Assembly (NCBI GenBank): GCA_016840405.1
Contig: JAEOSK010000048.1
Location: 1 to 14,798 of the forward strand
Direction: 5' to 3'
Length of the DNA stretch: 14,798 nt
From: Candidatus Hermodarchaeum yapensis
GTDB taxonomy: Archaea > Asgardarchaeota > Hermodarchaeia > Hermodarchaeales > Hermodarchaeaceae
The position numbers and the translations under genes were made by a program. This document shows, one piece after another, positions 1 through 10,371 of this stretch. Positions within the stretch are counted from its first letter, which is position 1, and every line of letters begins with the position of its first letter. The notes under the pieces were generated by a model. That model did not search any database, was not told the DNA's origin, and worked only from the letters and a program-made list of their open reading frames with translations.

Positions 1-45
1 GACCGACGCCTTTTTACTCACAACACCAAGCCTTACTGAAATTTT
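1..45 (+). repeat. Cassette-boundary site 1 (left arm type A, right arm type X); probably clipped by the window start
   Basis: GACCGACGCCTTTT-TACTCACA-ACACCAAGCCTTACTGAAATTTT, core at 15-22. Bases 1-22 match 2821-2842 at 21/22; right arm matches site 5 at 20/23. Confidence 0.9.
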
Positions 46-147
46 ATATTAAAAATCAAAAGGTTGAGATAATCGGCTAGTCCGGCCTTTTATATGACCT
101 ATGCTTTAATACCCACCGAACCAACTGTACCTGTGGAGGTCATGCGA

Positions 148-1179
148 ATGTCTTCTTCGAAGGTCTTGGGATACGCTGCAAAAGCGGTAGGACAGCCGCT
201 GGAGCCATTCACCTATAAGCCACCCAAATTGGGGAAACATGATGTTCGGGTCTCAGTCACGCATTGCGGTTTGTGCCATACCGACATCCAAGCCATTGAC
301 GACTACTACGGAATAACCGAGTTTCCCTTTGTCCCTGGTCACGAGATCGTTGGGTATGTGTCGGCTATGGGTCGTGCGGTATCCGACCTGAAGGAAGGGG
401 ACCGGGTCGGCATCGGCTGGCAAGGCCGTTCTTGCATGGACTGTGATTTCTGTTTGCAGGGCGAAGAGCAGCTCTGCATGGATATTGTCGCCTCGGGAAC
501 ATGGGTCCCATATGGCGGTTTCGCATCCTCTGTCCTTGTGGATAGCCGCTTTGCCTACCCTCTACCTGATGCCATACCCTCCGAGGTGGCAACGGTACTC
601 ATGTGCGCTGGGATTGCGGTTTTTTCCCCGCTTCAATCGTACGCAGTGCGACCTAGACAAAAAATTGGCATCATAGGCGTAGGAGGGCTGGGTCACCTTG
701 CTTTACAGTTCGCCCACGCCCTTAACTACGATGTCACTGCCATTTCCTCATCTCCAGAGAAGAAGGAGGAGGCGCTTGCCTTCGGCGCAGACCACTTCAT
801 CATTTCAGAAGACGAGACTAGCCTACGGCAGGCTATGTTCAGCTTCGACCTGTTGCTATGCACCACCTCTGCCAAAATCAACTGGGAGGCGCTATTGAAC
901 ATCTTGAAGAAAAATGGGAGGCTAGTCCTTGTTGGCTTCCCAGATTTGGCGTTCAATTCAACTGACCTCGTAGCACATCAATTGTCAATCACCGGTTCCT
1001 TCCTTGGCAATCGGACCACCATGCGGGAGATGCTCGCGTTCGCACAGGAACATGGCATCGTGCCCAAGGTGGAGTTGATGCCCATGACGAGGGTAAACGA
1101 AGCAATTCAGAAGGTCAGAGAGAACAAGGCACGCTACCGTATCGTCTTAGTCAACGATACAGTCGAAGTGGAAGTCTAG
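148..1179 (+). CDS. Zinc-dependent NAD(P)-dependent alcohol dehydrogenase / aldehyde reductase (MDR superfamily, cinnamyl-alcohol dehydrogenase-like)
   Basis: Catalytic Zn motifs CGLCHTD, GHEIVG and MCAG; structural Zn CMDCDFC-x7-C; Rossmann GVGGLG followed by ISSSPEK (NADP-type). ORF track starts at 94, but GGAGGT at 135-140 favours ATG 148. Stop TAG 1177-1179 abuts site 2. Confidence 0.92.
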   Translation: MSSSKVLGYAAKAVGQPLEPFTYKPPKLGKHDVRVSVTHCGLCHTDIQAIDDYYGITEFPFVPGHEIVGYVSAMGRAVSDLKEGDRVGIGWQGRSCMDCDFCLQGEEQLCMDIVASGTWVPYGGFASSVLVDSRFAYPLPDAIPSEVATVLMCAGIAVFSPLQSYAVRPRQKIGIIGVGGLGHLALQFAHALNYDVTAISSSPEKKEEALAFGADHFIISEDETSLRQAMFSFDLLLCTTSAKINWEALLNILKKNGRLVLVGFPDLAFNSTDLVAHQLSITGSFLGNRTTMREMLAFAQEHGIVPKVELMPMTRVNEAIQKVRENKARYRIVLVNDTVEVEV

Positions 1180-1226
1180 ACATCCGATACGCTTTTACTC
1201 ACAAACCCAAGGCTTACTGAACTTTG
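1179..1226 (+). repeat. Cassette-boundary site 2 (left arm B, right arm X)
   Basis: GACATCCGATACGCTTT-TACTCACA-AACCCAAGGCTTACTGAACTTTG, core at 1196-1203; 43/48 identical to site 5. Confidence 0.92.
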
Positions 1227-1329
1227 TTGCCTTGAAAGGAAATATCATTTGAAGACGCATATTTCTGATTGTGTACATCTGTAACTATGTAGGCAAAAAT
1301 CCATAAACACCGAATCATCTACAGCTTGC

Positions 1330-1878
1330 ATGCAATTCTATCCTCAAAATGCAGTTGTTCCAAAAGAACTGCGAACGGAGGAATTCCATATACGTCCTCT
1401 TAGAGTGAGTGATGCAGAGATTGACTATGCAGCAGTGATGGATAGTAAATCCATGCTACGGATAATGAGTCAGAGTACATGGCCATCAGATGATTTCACC
1501 TTAGAGATGAATAGAAAAGATCTAGAGGAACATGAACAAGAACACGATGAACGCATTGCATTCACCTACACGGTTCTGGATCCAACCAAACGCATTTGCT
1601 TAGGATGTGTATATATCCGGCACTTGAAGGAAGGCCCGATGAAAGGCGACCATGCGGCTGAGCTTCGTTTTTGGATCCGTCAGCCGTACTTAGATCAAGA
1701 TTTAGATAAACTGCTGTTGAAGCACCTAATTGCCTGGTTCAAAAACGACTGGGCCTTTTCACATGTTATCCTCAGTATTGCTGATGAGGATAAAAGACAG
1801 GTTCAGCTTGCAACCGAGTTGGGTCTTCACCTCGTCCATGCATACGGAAACAAATGGTCAGAATTTCTCATCAAATGA
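1330..1878 (+). CDS. GNAT-family (RimJ/RimL-like) N-acetyltransferase
   Basis: 182-aa ORF with LRTEEFHIRPL..SDAE.DY start, FTYTVL...CLGCVYI beta-strands and A-E-L-R-F-W, typical of the RimJ/RimL-type GNAT fold. Confidence 0.7.
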   Translation: MQFYPQNAVVPKELRTEEFHIRPLRVSDAEIDYAAVMDSKSMLRIMSQSTWPSDDFTLEMNRKDLEEHEQEHDERIAFTYTVLDPTKRICLGCVYIRHLKEGPMKGDHAAELRFWIRQPYLDQDLDKLLLKHLIAWFKNDWAFSHVILSIADEDKRQVQLATELGLHLVHAYGNKWSEFLIK

Positions 1879-1909
1879 CTCTACCTTAACATAACGTGAC
1901 ATGAGAATG

Positions 1910-1960
1910 AATATCCGATATGCTTTTACTCACAAAATCACGCCACACTCACATTTTGTG
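1910..1960 (+). repeat. Cassette-boundary site 3 (left arm B, right arm Y)
   Basis: AATATCCGATATGCTTT-TACTCACA-AAATCACGCCACACTCACATTTTGTG, core at 1927-1934; second ACTCACA at 1947-1953. Confidence 0.9.
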
Positions 1961-2090
1961 GTGAACACGGCAATAGTCACAAACACTACGAAAATTCGTT
2001 TAGTTCCACGAAAACTAGAAACTAACACCCAGAACTTACTTCAAACCTTCTTCGACTGCGCTTCCTGGACAGGTTCCGCTGAAAATGGGT

Positions 2091-2669
2091 TTATCGAATG
2101 ATGTCCCCAAACTCTTCAAAGGGCATACTCGCCAGTAAAGGCATCAGCTTACCAAATCCTTCAAGAATTTCGGGATCTTCATGGAACTTCTCATGGGCTT
2201 CTTTGCTCGTCCAATAGGTGAGCATTACATATTTCGTGGGTTTGATGGGGACCTCTTTGTATGGTCCTTGAACCATGCTCCCTCCAAACGAGATTGATGA
2301 GATTCGAAAAATCTTCGATCCCAAGAATCCCTTTTTCTCCACGGTTTTATGACACAGGTCACCGGCTAAATCCGTAAAAGCTTGCTCTTTGCCTGGTTTC
2401 ACAGTCAAATAATTAAGCGCACAAACTACACTACGCTGGATCATCTCATACTCCCCATGTTTTGACATTGGGATTATTTCAGCAGTTATCCCGTTTTTCT
2501 GAAGGTAATCCTTCGCTATCCTCGAACGAAATCCAGTATTACAAAAGAGTTCGATGGACTGATCACGAAAGAAATCCAAATAATATTCGAGATCCTGTAA
2601 CGGGAAGTTGTATGCTCCTTTAATGTGTTCTTTGATGAACTCTTCACGAGAACGGACATCAACAATCAT
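2091..2669 (-). CDS. Rhodanese domain fused to a dimeric alpha+beta barrel (ABM / sulfur oxygenase reductase-like) domain
   Basis: N-terminal IVDVRS..EF...HIKGA and active-site loop FCNTGFRS; C-terminal VKPGKEQAF...KGFLG...YVMLTYW.S.EAHEKFH. Likely start is ATG 2669 (GGTG upstream) rather than TTG 2699. Confidence 0.8.
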   Translation of the reverse strand: MIVDVRSREEFIKEHIKGAYNFPLQDLEYYLDFFRDQSIELFCNTGFRSRIAKDYLQKNGITAEIIPMSKHGEYEMIQRSVVCALNYLTVKPGKEQAFTDLAGDLCHKTVEKKGFLGSKIFRISSISFGGSMVQGPYKEVPIKPTKYVMLTYWTSKEAHEKFHEDPEILEGFGKLMPLLASMPFEEFGDIIR

Positions 2670-2817
2670 ATCAAACACCGAAAAGAGAACCGCTGTCAAA
2701 TTATTTAGGCTTATTTATATTGCTTGCTAAGTAAGCCCGTTTAAAAAACATATAAATTAATCAATCTCTGGAAGAGAAGCCCCGATAGTGAGTAGGACCA
2801 TCATAGAAGATTGGTTG

Positions 2818-2865
2818 TACGACCGACGCCTGTTTACTCACAGAATCACGCAGCGCTCACATTAT
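2818..2865 (+). repeat. Cassette-boundary site 4 (left arm A, right arm Y)
   Basis: TACGACCGACGCCTGTT-TACTCACA-GAATCACGCAGCGCTCACATTAT, core at 2835-2842; right arm matches site 3 at 18/23. Confidence 0.9.
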
Positions 2866-3075
2866 CTGATTTAGGGAAAGCATCATAAGAGTGAGAAAGG
2901 TGTGAAAACCACATCCTCAAATTACTGTCGAATGCCCTCCTTTTCAACTCCACCCACACAAGGAATTATTTGGCGAACGGAATATTTGTAACTCTTTTAC
3001 TCTTACAGCTGATTAGAATTAACTGTTCAATTCCTTAGGAAATCAAGATTATTCTGAATAATAAAAAACCTTTCG

Positions 3076-3097
3076 AAAAAAAATAAAATAAAAAAAA
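3076..3097 (-). terminator. Possible oligo-T archaeal terminator for the minus-strand small ORFs
   Basis: A-run on the + strand (T-run on -) about 90 bp downstream of the 3185 stop codon. Confidence 0.35.
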
Positions 3098-3184
3098 TAT
3101 ACTAGGTAGTTACAAACTGGAGACAAAGGAGGCAAATCTCGGAACGCGCCTTTCAGTGATTGACCTGAATCAGCTAGGATCTAG

Positions 3185-3385
3185 CTAGCTAGTTAAATAG
3201 TATCTTCCGTCCTTTGTTGCAACGACACCAGAAGGTATGATTGTGTTGGCACTCATTTTCAGCCACTTTTCTTCAAGTTTGAGTTCTTTGGGTGTTTTAG
3301 CAGTCTCTTCAGAAGTGGCTTCCGCTTCTTTGAGTGTCTTTTTAGTACGCTCCAATACCCATGCTGCATAAGCTGCTACTGCCAA
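3185..3385 (-). CDS. Small hypothetical protein (~66 aa)
   Basis: Strong RBS AGGAGGTGA (complement of 3391-3399) 5 nt upstream of TTG 3385; follows 3430-3627 on the same strand. Confidence 0.65.
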   Translation of the reverse strand: MAVAAYAAWVLERTKKTLKEAEATSEETAKTPKELKLEEKWLKMSANTIIPSGVVATKDGRYYLTS

Positions 3386-3429
3386 TTGAGTCACCTCCTT
3401 ATCCTGTCAATCTATTTATCAGTTTTTAG

Positions 3430-3627
3430 CTACGAAGGTTCCCGGCTACTCCGTATCATAATTGCAGAAGTCAATATGACAATCAGCATCATACCAAATA
3501 TCGCCACAAGGCTTCCGATGCCGAAGGTTCGTTCAGCAAAAATATGACCTTCTAGAGCTATCCCCATACCTACAGTAATGAAAAACCCTGCCACTACGAG
3601 CCATACATATTCCCATTTTCTCATCAT
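3430..3627 (-). CDS. Small membrane protein with two predicted TM helices
   Basis: Two hydrophobic stretches (YVWLVVAGFFITVGMGIAL; FGIGSLVAIFGMMLIVILTSAIMI); GAGGT upstream. Confidence 0.6.
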   Translation of the reverse strand: MMRKWEYVWLVVAGFFITVGMGIALEGHIFAERTFGIGSLVAIFGMMLIVILTSAIMIRSSREPS

Positions 3628-3898
3628 GAAAACCTCAACTAAGTTGCTCTAAACATTCTAGGTATGACAGATGACTATAAACAACTGTGGATTAATTCTC
3701 CATAGCCTTCATATGTCGTGCTACGAAAAATTCATTTTCAGAAAAGTTAGGAACTGGGTGTTCAGATTACAAATGGTTAATCTGTTGTACAAGACCGATT
3801 TGTCCAAGAAGAAGCTGGGCGAAATGTGCCACTAGAGGGAGGATTAGGAATTGCTTCGATCGGTTTTTTGGTTTGGATTCGAAGAAGTAGGTGATTAA

Positions 3899-4063
3899 TT
3901 AATAATACTGGGTTAAAGCTGCTTTTCCTTTCTCTGTGGTTTTGAATTCGAAAATCCCCGCTGTAGGTTGATCATTCGATATTGGACTTGGACCTTTAAC
4001 GAATATCGACATTTCAATAATCCCAACACCCATAACATTGGAAGTACCTTGGGGCGTAATCAT
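3899..4063 (-). CDS. Possible 54-aa ORF or gene remnant (below the ORF-track cutoff)
   Basis: Hand translation MITPQGTSNVMGVGIIEMSIFVKGPSPISNDQPTAGIFEFKTTEKGKAALTQYY; same strand as its neighbours; no recognised homology. Confidence 0.25.
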   Translation of the reverse strand: MITPQGTSNVMGVGIIEMSIFVKGPSPISNDQPTAGIFEFKTTEKGKAALTQYY

Positions 4064-4126
4064 TCCTCTATCAGCATTCTGTGGAATCTGCCTTCCACTT
4101 GATCAATTACTTCAAACCAAATAATG

Positions 4127-4174
4127 GACATCCGATATGCTTTTACTCACAAATCCAAGCCTTACTGAAGTTTT
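4127..4174 (+). repeat. Cassette-boundary site 5 (left arm B, right arm X)
   Basis: GACATCCGATATGCTTT-TACTCACA-AATCCAAGCCTTACTGAAGTTTT, core at 4144-4151. Confidence 0.92.
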
Positions 4175-4312
4175 TTCTCGACGTAGATATAGCGCGTTTT
4201 TGTAATGCATAATTACTAACTTTTATCTTTATCACCGAATAGATACATCCAATCCAATTATATACTTAAATATTTGAATAGATTAATACATCACACATCT
4301 CGAGGTTTATCG

Positions 4313-5401
4313 ATGACTAGCGAAAGTGAGTCTGGTTCTAGTAACTCTGATGAGGAATCTGTTCAAATGGGGCTCTTTGAGAAGTACCTTACACTCTGGA
4401 TATTATCATTTATGACCTTGGGGCTTCTATTGGGATGGCTTTTCCCCGCTTTTGCACTAACTCTTGCTGGACTTCAGTTTGCCGGGTTTTCCATTCCTAT
4501 TGCTATTTGTCTCTTCTTCATGATGTTCCCAACCCTCATCAATATTGAATATGGCGAGATCAAAAACGCTATTAAATTCCCCAAGCCGCTTGTAATCACG
4601 CTCGTGGCTAATTGGATCATCAATCCCCTCCTCGGTTTCTTCTTGGCAAGCACAATACTCGCTGCAAATCCCGGGTATGCCATTGGCATTATCCTACTTG
4701 CAGTTTCGCCGTGCACAGCAATGGTCCTGTTTTGGAATAAATTCGCGAAAGGGAACATCAATTTAGGCTTGGTCATCACCTCGATCAACTCGCTCTTGAT
4801 TCTGCTTCTCTATGCACCTCTTGCATCAGTTTTCATTGGGTTTTATGTCACGGTCCCCTTCATCACTCTCCTTTTCGGAACCATGGTTTTCCTTGTTCTT
4901 CCCCTCGTCACCGGTGTCATAGTGAAACGCCACGTCTACAACACCAGAGGTCAAAAATGGTTCGCCAGTAACTTCAAACCTGTTCTGGATAAAATTGCCA
5001 TCGTTGCGCTCCTCCTCACTCTTGTTGTTCTCTTCTCATTTCAAGGTCAAGTTATTCTCACGCAACCTCTCGATGTTCTCTGGATCAGCAGTGTTCTTCT
5101 CCTCAACTATATAATCATGTTTACCTCTGTGTTTCTCGTCTGTTACAAACTCGATTTTTCCTACAAACAAACTGTTACCGCCACGATTATCGCAAGCAGC
5201 TCTCACTTTGAAATTGCGATTGCCACAGCAATTCTTCTTTTTGGACCCGGATCCGCTGCCGCGTTCGCAACAGTGATTGGTGTCCTCTGGGAAGTTCCCC
5301 TAATGGTCGCCTTCCTCAAACTCGCCCTCCGCCTTAGACCGAAACTCTGGTCTGAATCCACTAACACGACAATCAAATCATCTGCATCTGAATTAAACTA
5401 G
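4313..5401 (+). CDS. acr3: Acr3-family arsenite efflux transporter
   Basis: MGLFEKYLTLWI start, LVANW, SPCTAMV (conserved Cys), SSHFEIAIA, GVLWEVP and about 10 hydrophobic segments. ATG 4313 has GAGGT upstream. Confidence 0.92.
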   Translation: MTSESESGSSNSDEESVQMGLFEKYLTLWILSFMTLGLLLGWLFPAFALTLAGLQFAGFSIPIAICLFFMMFPTLINIEYGEIKNAIKFPKPLVITLVANWIINPLLGFFLASTILAANPGYAIGIILLAVSPCTAMVLFWNKFAKGNINLGLVITSINSLLILLLYAPLASVFIGFYVTVPFITLLFGTMVFLVLPLVTGVIVKRHVYNTRGQKWFASNFKPVLDKIAIVALLLTLVVLFSFQGQVILTQPLDVLWISSVLLLNYIIMFTSVFLVCYKLDFSYKQTVTATIIASSSHFEIAIATAILLFGPGSAAAFATVIGVLWEVPLMVAFLKLALRLRPKLWSESTNTTIKSSASELN

Positions 5402-5446
5402 AAAAACAGGTCACAATAGAACCAAAGTAAATCAAAAGCAGCCATC

Positions 5447-5806
5447 TTATTCAGTTAAGAGATCTTGAACCTGATTCGCCATTTGCTTAACGAGGTCAGG
5501 ATTTGCCTGATAGTGATTAAATCGTCCTTTTCTCCGTCGCCGTAATAGCCCTGCTCGCGCCAGTATATTCAAATGATGTGAAATGGCAGGCTGACTCAAC
5601 TCACTTACACCAACCAGCTTGCATACGCAAACTTCTTTAGTCCCAATCGCTACAAATAATTTCAACCGTTGTGGGTGAGAAAGGGCTTTCGTCAAAGTCA
5701 CAATCGCATTTACCTGTTTTTCACCAGACTCAGATTCTAAATCTAACAACCGGCCAAGAAGTCGTTCTACATCCTCTCCTGATTTCTCTTCACATTTTTC
5801 CGACAT
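5447..5806 (-). CDS. arsR: ArsR/SmtB-family metal-responsive repressor
   Basis: KALSHPQRLK, EVCVCKL (ELCVCDL-type As(III)-binding box), LSQPAISHHL..L..AGL HTH and wing RRKGRFNHY; adjacent to acr3. Confidence 0.88.
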   Translation of the reverse strand: MSEKCEEKSGEDVERLLGRLLDLESESGEKQVNAIVTLTKALSHPQRLKLFVAIGTKEVCVCKLVGVSELSQPAISHHLNILARAGLLRRRRKGRFNHYQANPDLVKQMANQVQDLLTE

Positions 5807-5854
5807 TCTTTTTACCCCTATCTGATTCTAATTTAATCTGCAACTCATCCACAT

Positions 5855-5872
5855 ATTTAAATGCGTCTAAAT
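5855..5872. promoter_or_regulatory. Candidate ArsR operator / promoter upstream of arsR
   Basis: Imperfect inverted repeat ATTTAAA-TGCG-TCTAAAT about 50 bp upstream of the arsR start. The context is AT-rich, so support is weak. Confidence 0.3.
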
Positions 5873-5956
5873 TAATATCTAGAAGAGCATTACAGATATT
5901 TCAAGAAATGAATAGTGAATCATAAGTTTCGTATAACCAACGCCTTAATATTCACT

Positions 5957-6046
5957 AAAGATGAGTATGCCCTAAAAGTTCGTTTATTTTATTCGTTATT
6001 CTATTATGTTAAGTTGTGAGTGTAAAAGATTTAATACTCACAAAAT
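5957..6046 (+). repeat. 90-bp direct repeat copy 1, ending in site 6 (left arm C)
   Basis: Ungapped 74/90 match to 6387-6476; core TACTCACA at 6035-6042; followed by TAAGCCT, resembling right arm X. Confidence 0.9.
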
Positions 6047-6109
6047 TAAGCCTGAAACCCAATTAGTTTTAGCAAATGGTGAATATTTGTAGAAATCAGT
6101 GGGAATCAT

Positions 6110-6343
6110 ATGCGTAAGGTCTTGGCAAAGATTACCCTCATTATTTCACCGATTTTCATAGCCATTCTCGTGCTGGATTGGTTTGGTTTAATTCAAGGTG
6201 GATGGCTCTTCAGAAATCCGTTTTTATTCTGGATTAACGATACTTTCCTTCTGGTCTTTTATTCTATAGTGACTCTAATTTTAATAGGGGTAAGCATTAT
6301 CACCCTACAGGAACCTGAGCCAACAAAGAGCAAAGATAATTAG
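6110..6343 (+). CDS. Small membrane protein (77 aa, 2 TM)
   Basis: Two hydrophobic helices and a charged tail; sole ORF between the two 90-bp repeats. Confidence 0.6.
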   Translation: MRKVLAKITLIISPIFIAILVLDWFGLIQGGWLFRNPFLFWINDTFLLVFYSIVTLILIGVSIITLQEPEPTKSKDN

Positions 6344-6386
6344 ACAGCGATTTTAGGATGTAGGTTTCCTAAAGTTTATATGTACA

Positions 6387-6484
6387 AAAGATGAGTATTC
6401 CCTAAGCGTTTGTTTATTTTAATCGTTTTCTCGCTATGTTAATTTGTGTATGTAAAAGATTTTTTACTCACAAAATGTGAGTAA
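6387..6484 (+). repeat. 90-bp direct repeat copy 2 plus terminal palindromic site 7
   Basis: Core at 6465-6472; perfect inverted repeat TTACTCACA-AAA-TGTGAGTAA at 6464-6484. Confidence 0.9.
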
Positions 6485-6491
6485 TTAGACT

Positions 6492-7439
6492 ATGCCAATT
6501 CCTACACACCCCTTTCAAGAGGAACTCATCCAAGCCGTGAAACGGGTCACACCAAGTGTGGTTAGCGTAAGTACTCTTGCGTTAATGCGGAACTTCTATC
6601 GTGTTCACCCAGTGGGCGGGATGGGCTCGGGTGTTGTCTTGGATAATCATAATCACATTGTTACCAATCGTCATGTGGTGGCTAAAGCTCAGAGAATCTC
6701 TGTGGCTGATACAGAGGGGGGACGCCACGATGCTACATTGCTTGGGGGGGATCAACTCATTGACATTGCTGTCCTCAAAGTAGAAGAGGGCAATCTGATT
6801 CCAGCGAAACTTGGTGATTCTGATGAGTTAGAAGTGGGGCAGCTGACCATTGCTGTGGGCAATCCGTACGGATTCATTCTTGGTGGACCTACAGTAACCA
6901 CGGGGGTTATCAGTGCGGTGCAACGGCAGATTCAGGCCAGAAACATTGTGTTGGAGAAGTTGATTCAAACAGATGCGGCGATTAATCCAGGGAATAGTGG
7001 GGGACCGTTGTGTGATATTGATGGGAATGTTATCGGGATCAATACGGCGATGTTACCGTGGGCGCAGGGGATTGGGTTTGCAATTCCCATTAACACGGTG
7101 AAAGAAGTTGCCGAGGAAATCATTGAGTTTGGTCGTGTCAGGCGGGCGTATATGGGGTTTATGGGTGTGGGATTGAATCCACAAATTGCTCGAACCTACA
7201 AGCTACCTGTGAAAGAAGGCGTCTTAATTGCCCAAGTGGTGGATGGAAGTCCAGCGGCACGAGCAGGATTACAAGAAGGCGATGTGATAGTGGCATTTGA
7301 TGGTGAAGCCATTCGGTCGATGGGTGAAATCCAAGAGCAGCTTAGGAAACGGACGGCGGGGAGCCTGTTAGAGGTTACGGTGGCTCGGGGTCAGCGTCGG
7401 CGGGGGATGTCGCTTATTCTGGGGGAGGTTCCAGCGTAA
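6492..7439 (+). CDS. htrA: HtrA/DegP-family trypsin-like serine protease with one PDZ domain
   Basis: GMGSGVV, catalytic triad TNRHVV / DIAVLK / IQTDAAINPGNSGGPL, GIGFAIP, PDZ GSPAARAGLQEGDVI. Confidence 0.95.
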   Translation: MPIPTHPFQEELIQAVKRVTPSVVSVSTLALMRNFYRVHPVGGMGSGVVLDNHNHIVTNRHVVAKAQRISVADTEGGRHDATLLGGDQLIDIAVLKVEEGNLIPAKLGDSDELEVGQLTIAVGNPYGFILGGPTVTTGVISAVQRQIQARNIVLEKLIQTDAAINPGNSGGPLCDIDGNVIGINTAMLPWAQGIGFAIPINTVKEVAEEIIEFGRVRRAYMGFMGVGLNPQIARTYKLPVKEGVLIAQVVDGSPAARAGLQEGDVIVAFDGEAIRSMGEIQEQLRKRTAGSLLEVTVARGQRRRGMSLILGEVPA

Positions 7440-8598
7440 CGTCTTGGGCGGTATCATAGAGTTGCCGGGTGTCGGGTTCTTTCAGTTCTTCCGGTTGGGG
7501 TTCATAGGTGGTGTTTTTGACGAAGAAGATGAGTAGGAAGAAGAAGATTATGTAAAAGAGGAATAGGGCAGAGTAAATGAGATAGACATTGGGGAAGAAG
7601 AGGGCGCTGATAATTAATTCTACACCGACTTGAAGTGAAACGAGGGCGAGTCCGACGATTAGGTATCCCGCTAGGCCTGGGAGGATATTGATGCGAGATT
7701 TGTCCCAGATTGTTGTGACCCAGGAGAGTTTAGGATCCTTTAGGTATTGAATGAGTAAAATTGCTCCGATGATGACACCGATGACCCAGACGACGAGCAT
7801 AATCAACGCTAAGATGACAAGCAGGTTGAAATCGCCCAAGCTTTCGAGGATAAGTTCTGAGAATGCAAAGGCGTTGATGAAACCATGGATGATCATGGGA
7901 AAGAGGACGTTGCGAGTGGCTACATAGGTGAAGCCGAGGAAGAGGCCGAGGGTAAATGTCGTGACGAAATGAGAGATGACAAAGCTGATACTGCCGTTGA
8001 TCACGTCGTTGGGAACGTGGATGAGGGCGAATCCTAGGCTGGAGGCGATGACCGCTGCGAAGTGCCCCATACCCCGGTGTTCGAGGGCAGGGATGAGCAT
8101 ACGGCGAAAGATGAGTTCTTCAAAAATGGCGGCACCAAAAATGACCGTTGCAAAGAGGAGGACAATATTCCAAGGGTTGACAAGATGAGCGGGAGTTAGA
8201 ATGAAACCAGTATAAGATGACTGGATGGGCATTCCAAGGGCAGTAAAGAAGAGCCAGAGAGCCAGAGCGAAGAGCATGGCCATGGTGAGTGCTAGACAGG
8301 CGATTCCGAAGGTCTTGAGGGTTCGTATAATAGTTGGTTTTTGGACCTCAACTAATTTCAAGCGAAAAAGGGGAAGCAGAAAGATGAAAATGACGAGGAT
8401 GCCAACTATTTGTCCAAAAAGATTCACTTGAAGTGAAGCGATGGTGCCATCGGGGATAAGGACGGGAATCCAGAAATTAATGAGTATTAGTCCGATTGCC
8501 CCGATTGCTAGGATGAATAATCCGATGATGAAGAGGAATGTGGGTGTTAAGAAATTGAAGATGCTTTCATCGCGTTCTTTGAAGACCAAAGGATTCAC
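7414..8598 (-). CDS. CPBP (CAAX/Rce1/Abi-type) intramembrane metalloprotease
   Basis: Motifs FEELIFRR, FALIH and HGFIN within a polytopic membrane protein; overlaps the htrA 3' end convergently by 26 bp. Confidence 0.88.
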   Translation of the reverse strand: MNPLVFKERDESIFNFLTPTFLFIIGLFILAIGAIGLILINFWIPVLIPDGTIASLQVNLFGQIVGILVIFIFLLPLFRLKLVEVQKPTIIRTLKTFGIACLALTMAMLFALALWLFFTALGMPIQSSYTGFILTPAHLVNPWNIVLLFATVIFGAAIFEELIFRRMLIPALEHRGMGHFAAVIASSLGFALIHVPNDVINGSISFVISHFVTTFTLGLFLGFTYVATRNVLFPMIIHGFINAFAFSELILESLGDFNLLVILALIMLVVWVIGVIIGAILLIQYLKDPKLSWVTTIWDKSRINILPGLAGYLIVGLALVSLQVGVELIISALFFPNVYLIYSALFLFYIIFFFLLIFFVKNTTYEPQPEELKEPDTRQLYDTAQDVTLEPPPE

Positions 8599-8688
8599 CA
8601 GTTACAATTTAATGACTAAAATGGTTGCAGCACCCTCTCAAACTCATTGTAGATAAGCTTGTTCATCGTCACAAACTCGAATTAGTGT

Positions 8689-9678
8689 TTAGATCGTGTT
8701 TGTCGTTCCACGTTTCATGATTATTGATTGAAATAGCATGGTTAGTGTAATCCTGTTGGTTTGGTGCTGGACAAGAAGGGGAATGGGTTCGAAGGGATTG
8801 ACTTTTCCGAGCCATCGCATGGCTTCGAAGTAGAGAGGCCAATCGGATTCTTCATCGTAGGGTTCGGGGAGAAATTCGGGGGGAAACTCCCAGCCGTCGC
8901 GATCGCTCTGCTCTTCGATTTCACCATGTGGGGCGATAAGGAAGACGCGACCTGCCCCATATTCGCAGGACACAATCGCAGGATCGCCGGTTACATTGTA
9001 GATGCCTAGTACGGAGTATTGGGTTTGATCGTAGGGTTCGATGTAGGGTCCACCGGAGTAAAGCATTTGATAGGCTGGGGGAAGCGAATCAGTGATGGGG
9101 TGGGTGTGGTCAGTGATGTTGATTTGAGTCATAGCATGACCGGGTTCGGGTCTTTCGGCGATTTCAAAGATGGGACCCCAAGCCACGCCTGGGAAGAGGT
9201 CGAGATTTTCTTCGTCGCCTTCCACTTTATAATCGGGAGGCGGAAAGGCAGGATCATCCATCCAAACCATATAGTCACAGGCCCAGTAGGCTCCTGCACA
9301 GATACCCAAATATCCACCACCATTGGTGACAAATTCTTGGATTTTTGTTTTCCCTACCTGTCCCACTTCACCCCAGTAGGCGGGATAATGCCCGCCGGGC
9401 CAGATGAGTACATCAAAATTCACCAAGTCACCAGCTTGGATGTCTGATCCTCGAATGGTTGAAAATTGGCAGCCCATCCATGCAACAAGATTGGGAATGA
9501 CAATATTATCGATGGACCAAGCCCCGTCACCATTATAATAAGCCACGCGAAGGTCCTGCATCCGGCGAAACCGACTTTGGTCCACCATAAAGGTGAATAT
9601 GAAAGGAAAACTAATCCACACTAGTACGATACTCACAATCAATACTGCTGCAAGTGCGATTACCCATCTCCTTCTCAC
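8689..9678 (-). CDS. Membrane-anchored or secreted BPL-N / class I glutamine amidotransferase-like protein
   Basis: N-terminal RRR plus hydrophobic helix; DVLIWPGG, FVTNGGGYLGICAGAY nucleophile elbow, GRVFLIAPHGE. Confidence 0.75.
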   Translation of the reverse strand: MRRRWVIALAAVLIVSIVLVWISFPFIFTFMVDQSRFRRMQDLRVAYYNGDGAWSIDNIVIPNLVAWMGCQFSTIRGSDIQAGDLVNFDVLIWPGGHYPAYWGEVGQVGKTKIQEFVTNGGGYLGICAGAYWACDYMVWMDDPAFPPPDYKVEGDEENLDLFPGVAWGPIFEIAERPEPGHAMTQINITDHTHPITDSLPPAYQMLYSGGPYIEPYDQTQYSVLGIYNVTGDPAIVSCEYGAGRVFLIAPHGEIEEQSDRDGWEFPPEFLPEPYDEESDWPLYFEAMRWLGKVNPFEPIPLLVQHQTNRITLTMLFQSIIMKRGTTNTI

Positions 9679-9813
9679 CGTAGTTTCACCAGGATTCTAT
9701 CGGACTAACTTTGGTATAAATGATTCAATTATTGTGTGAATATTTCTGAAAAAAGTTCGAGAGGAGGAAGAGAGTGATTAGGTTCGAATTTCAAGATTCT
9801 TGAAGTAAAACCA

Positions 9814-10371
9814 TTAGGAGGATTTGTCTTCAATTGCTGCGATAATTGAGGGGGCGAGAAGAAAGAAGGGGCGAATGCTATTCATGCCAGTTTTGGCACT
9901 TGTTTCGACATAGGTGAGAGCTTGCTGGCTGGCGAACTCTTGGACATCATCCTTGGGTACAATCGCGATAAGATCGGCTTTGTTTCCAACGAGAATGCGG
10001 GGGATATCACCACATTCCCGATTCACTTCATCAATCCAGAAACCCATCCGTTCGAAACTTTCGGGATTAGACTGGTCGAATACCAAGATTGCTCCACGAG
10101 CGCCCTTGTAGTATTTTTTGCGAATTGGACCAAACCGTTCTTGGCCTGCCGTGTCCCAGATGGTCATACGGAGTTTTTGGTCACCAACGGTGATATCTTG
10201 GACGAAGAAATTCACTCCGAGTGTGAGAATGTAGCTGGGATTGTACATTCCTTTGACATATCGAACAATTAAACTGGTTTTTCCAACTGCTGGATCTCCG
10301 ACTACGACTACCTTCGCGGAATATGTGTAGGAAGGCGCATCTGCACTGGAATCGCGATTGGGTGGTGTCAT
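9814..10371 (-). CDS. Rab-like small GTPase (Ras superfamily)
   Basis: G1 GDPAVGKTS, G2 TLGVNF, G3 WDTAGQERF, YYKGA, G4 NKAD, G5 ETSAK; no C-terminal Cys prenylation motif. Confidence 0.95.
   Translation of the reverse strand: MTPPNRDSSADAPSYTYSAKVVVVGDPAVGKTSLIVRYVKGMYNPSYILTLGVNFFVQDITVGDQKLRMTIWDTAGQERFGPIRKKYYKGARGAILVFDQSNPESFERMGFWIDEVNRECGDIPRILVGNKADLIAIVPKDDVQEFASQQALTYVETSAKTGMNSIRPFFLLAPSIIAAIEDKSS

Follow-up and report, generated by a model that had tools for sequence, protein, structure and literature searches.

A probable mobile-cassette array with sites unlike attC upstream of htrA in a Hermodarchaeia genus

Results

Sites and cassettes upstream of htrA

The window analyzed here, a complete contig of 14,798 nt from Candidatus Hermodarchaeum yapensis, carries a row of accessory-gene modules (positions 1–6484) followed by the first backbone gene, htrA (6492–7439, + strand; a trypsin-like protease with a PDZ domain, Pfam). 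The core TACTCACA has nine matches in the window against 0.40 expected, and none of 200 shuffles reached nine. Seven of them lie on the + strand at 15, 1196, 1927, 2835, 4144, 6035, and 6465, exactly where a sequence-only reading had placed seven sites; the gaps between successive sites are 1181, 731, 908, 1309, 1891, and 430 bp. The − strand match at 6476–6483 is the palindromic partner of the site 7 copy, and an armless copy at 9630 lies within a gene.

Of the seven sites, which had been listed together, sites 6 and 7 are both located within a 102-nt direct repeat. Only sites 1–5 are full sites of ~60 bp, in which a variable left arm is followed by an invariant 10-base core, TTTACTCACA, and then by one of two right-arm types, A or B. 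Both types carry a second core-like copy ~19–20 bp further on, and type A arms end in a T-run; a decayed core at the end of type B arms was checked and not upheld. All five are on the + strand. Site 1 (1–47, core 13–22) combines an L2 left arm, cut by the contig end, with a type A right arm; site 2 (1172–1228, core 1194–1203) has an L1 arm starting from the stop codon of the preceding gene and a type A arm; site 3 (1903–1960, core 1925–1934) is L1 with type B, site 4 (2811–2867, core 2833–2842) L2 with type B, and site 5 (4120–4176, core 4142–4151) L1 with type A. As had been claimed, no armed site was found in the 8.3 kb to the right of the array, where a profile built from the sites gave no match. 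Rfam and tRNA scans of the window gave no match. Two metagenome contigs of the same strain (L048 and L050) contributed three further sites left of the window, together with the complete left arm of site 1 and two additional cassettes upstream; this strain's array comprises at least nine sites across ~9 kb.

The first cassette gene encodes a zinc alcohol dehydrogenase (ADH; 94–1179, + strand; Pfam ADH_N and ADH_zinc_N). Its TAG stop is placed directly at the left arm of site 2, so that the reported run of the ADH stop codon into this site was correct. The ADH cassette is also present in G008 and G012, with different neighbors, and in G007 as part of a longer unit. A GNAT acetyltransferase gene follows (1330–1878, + strand; Pfam), whose cassette shows 93.8% nucleotide identity to its G008 copy, and then, on the opposite strand, a gene for a rhodanese-ABM fusion (2091–2699, − strand; Pfam), a copy of which in metagenome contig L058 is 95.3% identical and then runs into a different downstream arm. 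Cassette 4 (2868–4119) contains only small ORFs (3185–3394 and 3430–3627, both − strand) and a 3′ remnant of a metalloprotease-like gene (~3912–4127, + strand); the claim that each module carries complete accessory genes does not extend to this module (2835–4144). The remnant is the 3′ part of a gene for a 530-aa HExxH membrane protein; G011 and G014 retain this gene intact, at 529 aa, and in both it ends at a site. We considered this gene as a hidden recombinase and rejected it: the product is a signal-anchored HExxH protein and therefore cargo. The next cassette (4274–5806) is shared by the genes of an ACR3/SBF-type arsenite carrier (4274–5401, + strand) and an ArsR regulator (5447–5806, − strand; both Pfam), and G012 and G013 carry this cassette too, in different surroundings. 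Finally, a 77-aa membrane protein is encoded between the two copies of the 102-nt element (6110–6343, + strand). Cassettes measure 0.4–2 kb, reaching ~5.7 kb. Five genes in this strain's array lie on the + strand and four gene units on the − strand.

The htrA promoter as anchor

Sites 6 and 7 are housed in the 102-nt direct repeat (5945–6046 and 6375–6476, 80% identical), an element that carries the htrA promoter. Copy 1 (+ strand) ends in site 6, a core variant at 6033–6042 (fold z −3.2). Copy 2 together with site 7 occupies 6375–6484 (+ strand; core 6463–6472, palindrome 6466–6482; fold z −3.0). Site 7 forms a perfect 9+3+9 palindrome that precedes the htrA ATG by 10 nt; it is both the promoter/operator of htrA and the right-hand anchor of the array. 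The stretch of the promoter between TATA and operator contains the array core, and an insertion polymorphism maps exactly to site 7 (loose end at 6472).

When ACTCACA-N3-TGTGAGT was searched allowing at most one mismatch, one to four copies were detected in all 15 genomes of the genus and almost no matches in controls. In each of the 15, the site 7 palindrome recurs at an hsp20/regulator locus, which in G000 (the present genome) and G007 consists of a divergent hsp20-like gene and an ArsR-type wHTH gene; in G000 the regulator gene occupies about 29400–29932 of contig C28. Sites 1–5 contain only a half-site of this palindrome. Site 7 alone meets the criterion for a regulon-type operator, i.e., a palindrome at several promoters including the regulator's own. 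Because the core overlaps the promoter TATA box and a transcription-factor half-site, its conservation may be partly regulatory.

Distribution of the sites

In the 2.7-Mb genome, strong profile matches were obtained only on contigs C63 (five) and C39 (32480–36200; two strong, four weak), with each cluster on a single strand. Full sites thus occur only in two one-directional clusters, and the criterion for a dispersed repeat of the REP/MITE type is not met. Co-oriented site clusters are present in 10 of the 14 sister genomes, and every array is of uniform orientation. All genomes are incomplete MAGs (72–91%), and many arrays stop at contig breaks. Searches of 46 genomes outside the genus returned nothing beyond one-mismatch chance matches, the exact type A site pattern was confined to this genus among 185,579 species searched, and viral contigs gave no match to the two site patterns searched. 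In the sister genus, htrA was either cut at a contig start (G018) or not found. The second array, on C39, is lineage-specific: sequence upstream of the same FwdD-like gene was usable in 10 other species, none of which has a site there. No empty site could be defined at this locus, since the upstream synteny is not conserved.

Cassette exchange at the core

htrA and the genes following it align in G007, G012, and G014, and the cassettes upstream differ. Cassettes such as ADH, GNAT, ACR3-ArsR, and esterase recur among related species before the htrA backbone, in orders that differ; cassette clusters 1, 2, 3, 4, 6, 7, and 12 are each represented in two to three genomes, with differing neighbors. 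Shared cassettes are 77–96% identical at the DNA level, compared with 68–71% for the adjacent htrA-CAAX backbone within the same genus.

The limits of identity fall at the core. Among pairs with the same upstream and different downstream sequence, identity ends at −3 to +2 relative to the final base of the core in 13 of 22, and in the remaining 9 it continues through a shared arm. For pairs with the same downstream and different upstream sequence, identity begins at −1 to +5 relative to the initial base of the core in 4 of 7. Left and right arms assort freely, the main left-arm classes pairing with both right-arm types (for example, L1 occurs 11 times with A, four times with B, and twice with C, and L2 14 times with A and three times with B). 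Metagenome contigs join arms of different sites at the core (for example, 6031→1927). In one contig a type B arm replaces the htrA arm directly after core 7; in L058 the site 4 left arm, identical to ours, is joined to a type A arm; in L055 the site 5 left arm is joined to a type B arm; and L059, with an arm swap of the same kind, shows one alternative gene order. These joints come from assembled contigs matched at ≥90% identity and may represent the gene orders of other strains. For this reason, joints that "go back" or "skip" were not counted as proof of excision, as they fit circles or deletions and other strains' orders equally well.

Transfer of cassettes between species, their shuffling, breakpoints at the core, and the sites with their clustering and polarity are shown by these data. 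The sequence-only reading had proposed a site-specific gene-capture platform different from integrons, to be refuted if gene content and order upstream of htrA were conserved among relatives, if the motif were scattered over the genome, or if gain and loss breakpoints fell outside the core. None of the three outcomes materialized: upstream content and order vary next to a conserved htrA and downstream backbone, full sites are restricted to the two co-oriented clusters, and the breakpoints are located in the core. The proposal is supported.

Could the repeat instead be a regulatory module (a promoter, terminator, or insulator), with swaps arising by homologous recombination or gene conversion after DNA uptake and without a dedicated recombinase? 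The core is the TATA-to-operator part of the htrA promoter, the T-runs ending type A arms resemble archaeal terminators, and many junction pairs are identical over 35–45 bp, on which homologous exchange could rely. However, unlike arms (A, B, C, and other) have been joined repeatedly at one place with only ~10 bp shared, site orientation is fixed while gene orientation flips, which is not expected of a promoter or terminator, and full sites are confined to the arrays and absent from other genes of the genome. We regard this explanation as improbable.

Absence of attC features and of an integrase

To our knowledge, the published archaeal integron cases were all found with the bacterial attC model. 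Enrichment of integrons and CALINs, as detected via attC, has been reported for Asgard MAGs (PMC9668308), which leaves room for the array being an ordinary member of either group, with attC sites that escaped recognition by eye. However, when both strands of positions 1–6600 were searched for RYYYAAC...GTTRRRY pairs 50–150 bp apart, none was found, with 1.2 expected from shuffles. Neither strand of sites 2–5 folded better than shuffles (z −0.76 to +1.02; site 1, which is cut, was not included), and the earlier statement that the sites lack attC features is upheld. The integron integrase model TIGR02249 scored the two PF00589 proteins of the genome at 153 and 64 bits, far below its cut-off of 265, and the cassette genes lie on both strands. 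An unrecognized integron is scarcely conceivable on these data.

Candidate recombinases

No recombinase gene was found in or beside any of 40-odd array loci, and the enzyme therefore remains a conjecture. The sequence-only reading had located it left of the window or in trans; no recombinase is encoded in the further 6.9 kb recovered to the left, so only the in-trans option survives. In G000 (a MAG 86% complete), the PF00589 proteins are two, XerA and a tRNA-adjacent integrase. The recombinase on contig C53 was rejected as the array enzyme, as it adjoins a tRNA gene and is therefore part of an ordinary integrated element. An IS110 gene on the 2.8-kb contig C7 was likewise rejected: it has no site nearby, and IS110 is present in only 3 of 15 genomes. 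A Y1 transposase was seen in 1 of 15, on a tiny contig with no site nearby. No serine recombinase of the resolvase kind or other was found in G000, and searches of the genome for canonical dif-like patterns gave weak, chance-like matches only.

These data also bear on the idea that the cassettes are non-autonomous, cargo-carrying transposable elements inserted at the core by a transposase encoded elsewhere (IS110/bridge-RNA, HUH, or unknown). Like elements of the IS110 and IS200/IS605 groups, the cassettes have no inverted termini and always insert in one orientation at one target, a likeness that we counted in favor of this idea along with the TTAC contained in the core and the IS110 transposase gene on C7. 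Against it stand the rarity of both transposases and their position on tiny contigs away from any site, the lack of a serine recombinase in G000, and the absence of end hairpins at sites 1–5. This makes a transposon origin highly improbable.

XerA is the only widely conserved recombinase candidate, and its role is unproven. The protein was identified by NCBIfam NF040815 (274 bits against a cut-off of 220) and by PDB 4a8e (E = 5e-54), and it is present in 13 of 15 genus genomes, the only tyrosine recombinase that widespread. Its gene lies 10.7–19 kb downstream of the htrA site in G003, G006, G007, G012, and G014, and ~16 kb from the anchor in G000, where it occupies 6331–7275 of C16 and was placed via C63–C16 synteny. 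Under an explanation that is a sub-case of a platform served in trans and names the enzyme, the cassettes would exploit Xer in the manner of IMEX or pdif modules: the housekeeping XerA would recombine the sites, the core would be one XerA-binding arm, and only one strand pair would be exchanged. Its prevalence and its distance from the htrA site speak for XerA. So does a 28-bp dyad of 11-6-11 geometry just upstream of htrA, which is identical in five species and whose right arm matches the core; in copy 1 of the 102-nt element this dyad (6015–6042) is dif-like in geometry with a BRE/TATA-like center. We also counted here the resemblance to IMEX attP sites, which have one conserved half and diverge straight after it.

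However, the dyad center is invariant, as befits a BRE/TATA promoter, and the left arm varies, the reverse of what is expected of dif; sites 1–5 have the right arm only. At junctions, the bases just left of ACTCACA stay with the left partner, and the exchange is therefore not in the spacer of the 28-bp dyad. Each genome has the N3 palindrome at two or more loci, which fits an operator, and one genome has two arrays and no canonical dif that we could find. Finally, 16 kb is not adjacency, and the synteny of XerA and anchor is a single inherited event. The Xer explanation thus remains unlikely, although it cannot be set aside.

Discussion

We conclude that positions 1–6484 are probably the htrA-proximal part of a chromosomal mobile-cassette array, a site-specific platform served in trans and belonging to one genus of Hermodarchaeia. 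In the mechanism that we propose, the left arm of a site (of several classes) would belong to the upstream cassette and the right arm (A or B) to the downstream cassette; the array terminates at the htrA promoter, and cassettes carry their own genes on either strand. Conservative site-specific recombination in or right beside the core would then account for the gain, loss, reordering, and passage of cassettes between species. That the exchange is enzymatic and site-specific is inferred, without a recombination experiment or a proven circular junction. It is likewise inferred that cassettes pass through a free form, probably circular, no circle or excision product having been proven, and that the enzyme acts in trans.

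We found no paper on this Hermodarchaeum array system. A wider reading, which we put forward tentatively as a serious possibility short of an even chance, is that Asgard archaea possess a gene-capture platform of their own, in which self-contained cassettes at lineage-specific double-strand sites unrelated to attC are collected next to a promoter of the host and carried from species to species by an enzyme external to the array (XerA or an undescribed recombinase). If true, the integron principle would have been invented a second time, independently, and the prokaryotes most closely related to eukaryotes would have in this platform a main route for the flow of accessory genes. If confirmed, attC-based searches would be overlooking a class of Asgard gene-flow hot spots, and the 10-base core with its defined arms would offer a concrete, testable substrate for finding the recombinase. 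Genes for arsenic resistance, redox functions, and hydrolases are among the cargo, which suggests niche adaptation in sediments.

A comparable case is tandem accretion at one att site, known from streptococcal cis-mobilizable elements and from tycheposon remnants at Prochlorococcus tRNA genes. There, integration is repeated at a single chromosomal position and leaves cargo blocks in a row, separated by copies of the att core, and most blocks lack an integrase; such arrays lie at tRNA or other conserved genes, and some of their members recognizably bear an integrase. In contrast, no integrase-bearing member was seen here, and the units are mostly single genes.

IMEX and the Acinetobacter pdif/dif modules resemble the present array in several respects (PMC6449649, PMC13141974). 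They are recombinase-less modules between short sites, they are shuffled among replicons with a housekeeping tyrosine recombinase proposed as the enzyme, and one half of their sites is conserved and the other degenerate. There are also differences. pdif modules have sites of alternating orientation and reside on plasmids, whereas all sites here are co-oriented, in at least two chromosomal arrays; IMEX integrate at the single chromosomal dif, whereas the sites here showed no resemblance to canonical dif.

Integrons are the textbook device for the capture of single genes. Like integrons and CALINs (Ghaly et al., 2022, PMC9668308), the array occupies a fixed position on the chromosome and consists of small cassettes in a one-directional row, its junction sites combine cassette-specific sequence with a short shared crossover, and its content varies among close relatives while some cassettes are common to several species. 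The integron criterion of a cassette row at a fixed locus, with content that varies among relatives and junctions at the site, is therefore met. Unlike integrons, it has no attC (no R″/R′ boxes and no hairpin) and neither IntI nor an integrase-adjacent attI; the site is of a double-strand type, ~60 bp long with direct sub-repeats, and the anchor is a gene promoter. Integron cassettes are mostly promoterless, co-oriented, and read from one Pc, whereas the genes here occupy both strands and therefore cannot depend on one common promoter. The array works like an integron yet is not one. It shows the architecture and evolutionary behavior of integrons, with an anchor that stays fixed, a polar row, crossover limited to the core, and cassettes whose similarity between species far exceeds that of the surrounding chromosome, but it uses another site and lacks the integron enzyme.

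Repeat Sites and Cassettes in Front of htrA

Contig C63 (14,798 bp), which constitutes the window, belongs to a 2.7-Mb MAG (G000) of 77 contigs with 44.7% GC and 86% completeness. The sequence-only reading had placed seven repeat sites on its + strand (15, 1196, 1927, 2835, 4144, 6035, and 6465), and TACTCACA is indeed present at every one. Extra copies are a palindromic partner at 6476–6483 and one copy without arms at 9630; the resulting 9 matches compare with 0.4 expected, a count reached by no shuffle. Alignment showed that sites 1–5 have ∼60 bp in common, consisting of a left arm, the invariant core TTTACTCACA, and a right arm. Left arms are of class L1 (sites 2, 3, and 5) or L2 (sites 1 and 4), and right arms of type A, with a T-run at the end (sites 1, 2, and 5), or type B (sites 3 and 4). 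In each right arm, the core heptamer recurs 19–20 bp downstream as an imperfect direct repeat. Unlike sites 1–5, sites 6 and 7 each terminate one copy of a 102-nt element (5945–6046 and 6375–6476, 80% identical).

The genes of the window encode a zinc alcohol dehydrogenase (ADH; 94–1179, +), a GNAT acetyltransferase (1330–1878, +), a rhodanese-ABM fusion (2091–2699, −), the small ORFs of cassette 4 (3185–3394 and 3430–3627, both −) followed by the 3′ remnant of an HExxH protein gene (about 3912–4127, +), an ACR3-type carrier (4274–5401, +), an ArsR regulator (5447–5806, −), a 77-aa membrane protein (6110–6343, +), and HtrA (6492–7439, +). The first small ORF of cassette 4 specifies a highly conserved 69-aa protein without a Pfam family, represented in public metagenomes by 408 protein clusters at 83%–94% identity. 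Summed contig depth over 3049–3556 was 1,600–6,000× in sediment runs, compared with 10–20× for the rest of the window. The backbone beyond htrA encodes a CAAX protease, a BPL_N/ThuA-like protein, and a Ras-family small GTPase (9814–10371, −; Pfam Ras, E 6e-48); the last of these, a conserved backbone gene, belongs to a family counted among the eukaryote-like signature proteins of Asgard archaea.

Two metagenome contigs of the same strain (L048 and L050) carry the array further left. The full order is carboxylesterase, SAM methyltransferase (−), ADH, GNAT, rhodanese-ABM (−), cassette 4, ACR3 and ArsR, membrane protein, and htrA; thioredoxin/DsbD, LVIVD, and acyltransferase genes lie still further left.

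Cassettes Are Joined at the Core and Shared between Species

When pairs of sites with the same upstream and different downstream sequences were compared, identity ended at positions −3 to +2 relative to the final base of the core in 13/22; in the remaining 9/22 it continued through a shared arm. In pairs with the same downstream and different upstream sequences, identity began at positions −1 to +5 relative to the first base of the core in 4/7. Variants in the first core bases go with the left partner, which places the exchange point in or just after ACTCACA. The main left-arm classes each combine with both right-arm types. Similar joints occur in metagenome contigs, which join the left arm of site 4 to a type A arm (L058), the left arm of site 5 to a type B arm (L055), and the 102-nt element to a type B arm (L059), and one estuary contig has a type B arm in place of htrA after core 7. 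Joints that go back or skip within a row were also seen. These are compatible with circles or deletions, but fit the gene orders of other strains equally well, and hence were not counted as proof.

The variable gene order in front of htrA that the sequence-only reading implied was borne out, the backbone aligning in G007, G012, and G014 (same-genus MAGs) while the rows differ. All loci were split at their cores and the resulting segments clustered, which yielded seven cassette types that each recur in two or three genomes with differing neighbors. In the window strain, the ACR3-ArsR cassette is flanked by cassettes 13 and 14, and in G012 by cassettes 7 and 2; cassette 2 itself opens the row in G014, has an internal position in G007, and directly precedes htrA in G012. 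Within the genus, shared cassettes are 77%–96% identical in DNA sequence, compared with 68%–71% for the adjoining htrA-CAAX backbone, indicating transfer between species after their divergence. GC content is 37%–52% depending on the cassette, and 46.6% in the backbone.

Across the whole genome, strong matches to a site profile were confined to C63 (5 strong matches) and a second array, C39:32480–36200 (2 strong and 4 weak matches on a single strand), which also contains one copy of the 102-nt element and is specific to the lineage of G000. Clustered co-oriented sites are present in 10/14 same-genus genomes; 46 genomes outside the genus gave nothing beyond one-mismatch chance matches. The exact type A pattern occurred in 9 stretches of a 185,579-species collection, all from MAGs of this genus labeled "Promethearchaeota" or "Hermod", and was absent from the viral contigs searched. 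This distribution identifies the organism as a member of the Hermodarchaeia, in agreement with the sequence-only reading, which had suggested a probable Asgard archaeon. In sister MAGs (L022–L037) many arrays begin or finish at contig ends, and the htrA contigs of G003, G006, and G018 (the last from a sister genus) are broken just upstream of htrA. Such arrays break short-read assemblies, and their true size and number are thus underestimated.

The htrA Anchor

Site 7, a perfect 9+3+9 palindrome, precedes the htrA start codon (ATG) by 10 nt. A TATA-like, T-rich run is found ∼30 nt upstream of this codon, and from its position we infer that the transcript may be leaderless. ACTCACA-N3-TGTGAGT (up to 1 mismatch) occurs in 1–4 copies per genome in 15/15 genus genomes, with almost no control matches. 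A second conserved palindrome locus, seen in both G000 and G007, is formed by an hsp20-like gene and a divergently oriented gene for an ArsR/HTH_20-type wHTH regulator (G000:C28:28617–29932, L066 2618–3933; also G007:C32 around 105803); the intergenic region of this gene pair holds two copies of the palindrome found in front of htrA. Most simply, the palindrome is read as an operator of a stress regulon, and the gene pair makes a candidate for an autoregulated heat-shock (Phr-like) regulon in Asgard archaea.

The 102-nt element contains a 28-bp dyad whose 11-6-11 geometry resembles that of dif; the dyad is unchanged across five species. With mismatches allowed, its center is constant and its left arm variable, and the center reads as BRE plus TATA. 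Judging from sequence, we take the dyad to be the putative native htrA promoter. Since the dyad reads as promoter and site 7 as operator, the cassette core would be the TATA-to-operator stretch of that promoter, into which cassettes would have been inserted. Within the second array, at C39:32400–34100 (L001 about 8400–10080, − strand), ∼90 nt from the native promoter region of the FwdD-like gene are duplicated, along with a type A arm. The parallel with the duplicated 102-nt htrA element of the window suggests that an anchor promoter can be copied as its array grows.

Candidate Recombinases

No recombinase gene was found in any array locus examined, and the proposal that one lies left of the window failed for the leftward DNA recovered from L048/L050. 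G000 carries genes for XerA and a tRNA-adjacent integrase, as well as a single IS110 gene on a very small contig; neither a resolvase nor a Y1 transposase was found in it. The integrase (C53:4215–5312, L061; 323 aa, divergent tyrosine type) adjoins a tRNA gene where a 5.3-kb contig ends, and probably marks the boundary of an integrated element with no connection to the arrays. Across 15 genus genomes, XerA is present in 13/15, IS110 in 3/15, and Y1 transposase in 1/15. These surveys leave XerA as the sole standing enzyme candidate, one that would act on the arrays in trans. Besides its prevalence, xerA is located downstream of the htrA site, at a distance of 10.7–19 kb, in six species (G000 included through synteny), but this synteny amounts to one inherited event, the joints are not where exchange within the spacer of the 28-bp dyad would place them, and one genome holds two arrays. 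The case for XerA as the array enzyme is therefore weak.

Comparison with Known Systems

The claim that the sites are not attC held: no RYYYAAC...GTTRRRY pair occurs in 1–6600, and sites 2–5 (site 1 left out) fold no better than shuffles on either strand (z −0.76 to +1.02). A search for IntI found none. We conclude that the array is real, non-attC, and integron-like; its mechanism is inferred and its enzyme unknown. In our literature search, Asgard archaea, gene cassettes, and site-specific recombination were linked only by Ghaly et al. 2022 (PMC9668308), whose work rests on attC, and a 2021 review of archaeal tyrosine recombinases does not mention Xer-exploiting elements. The window array differs from an integron in carrying cassette genes on both strands, and its closest bacterial Xer-based analogue is the pdif module.
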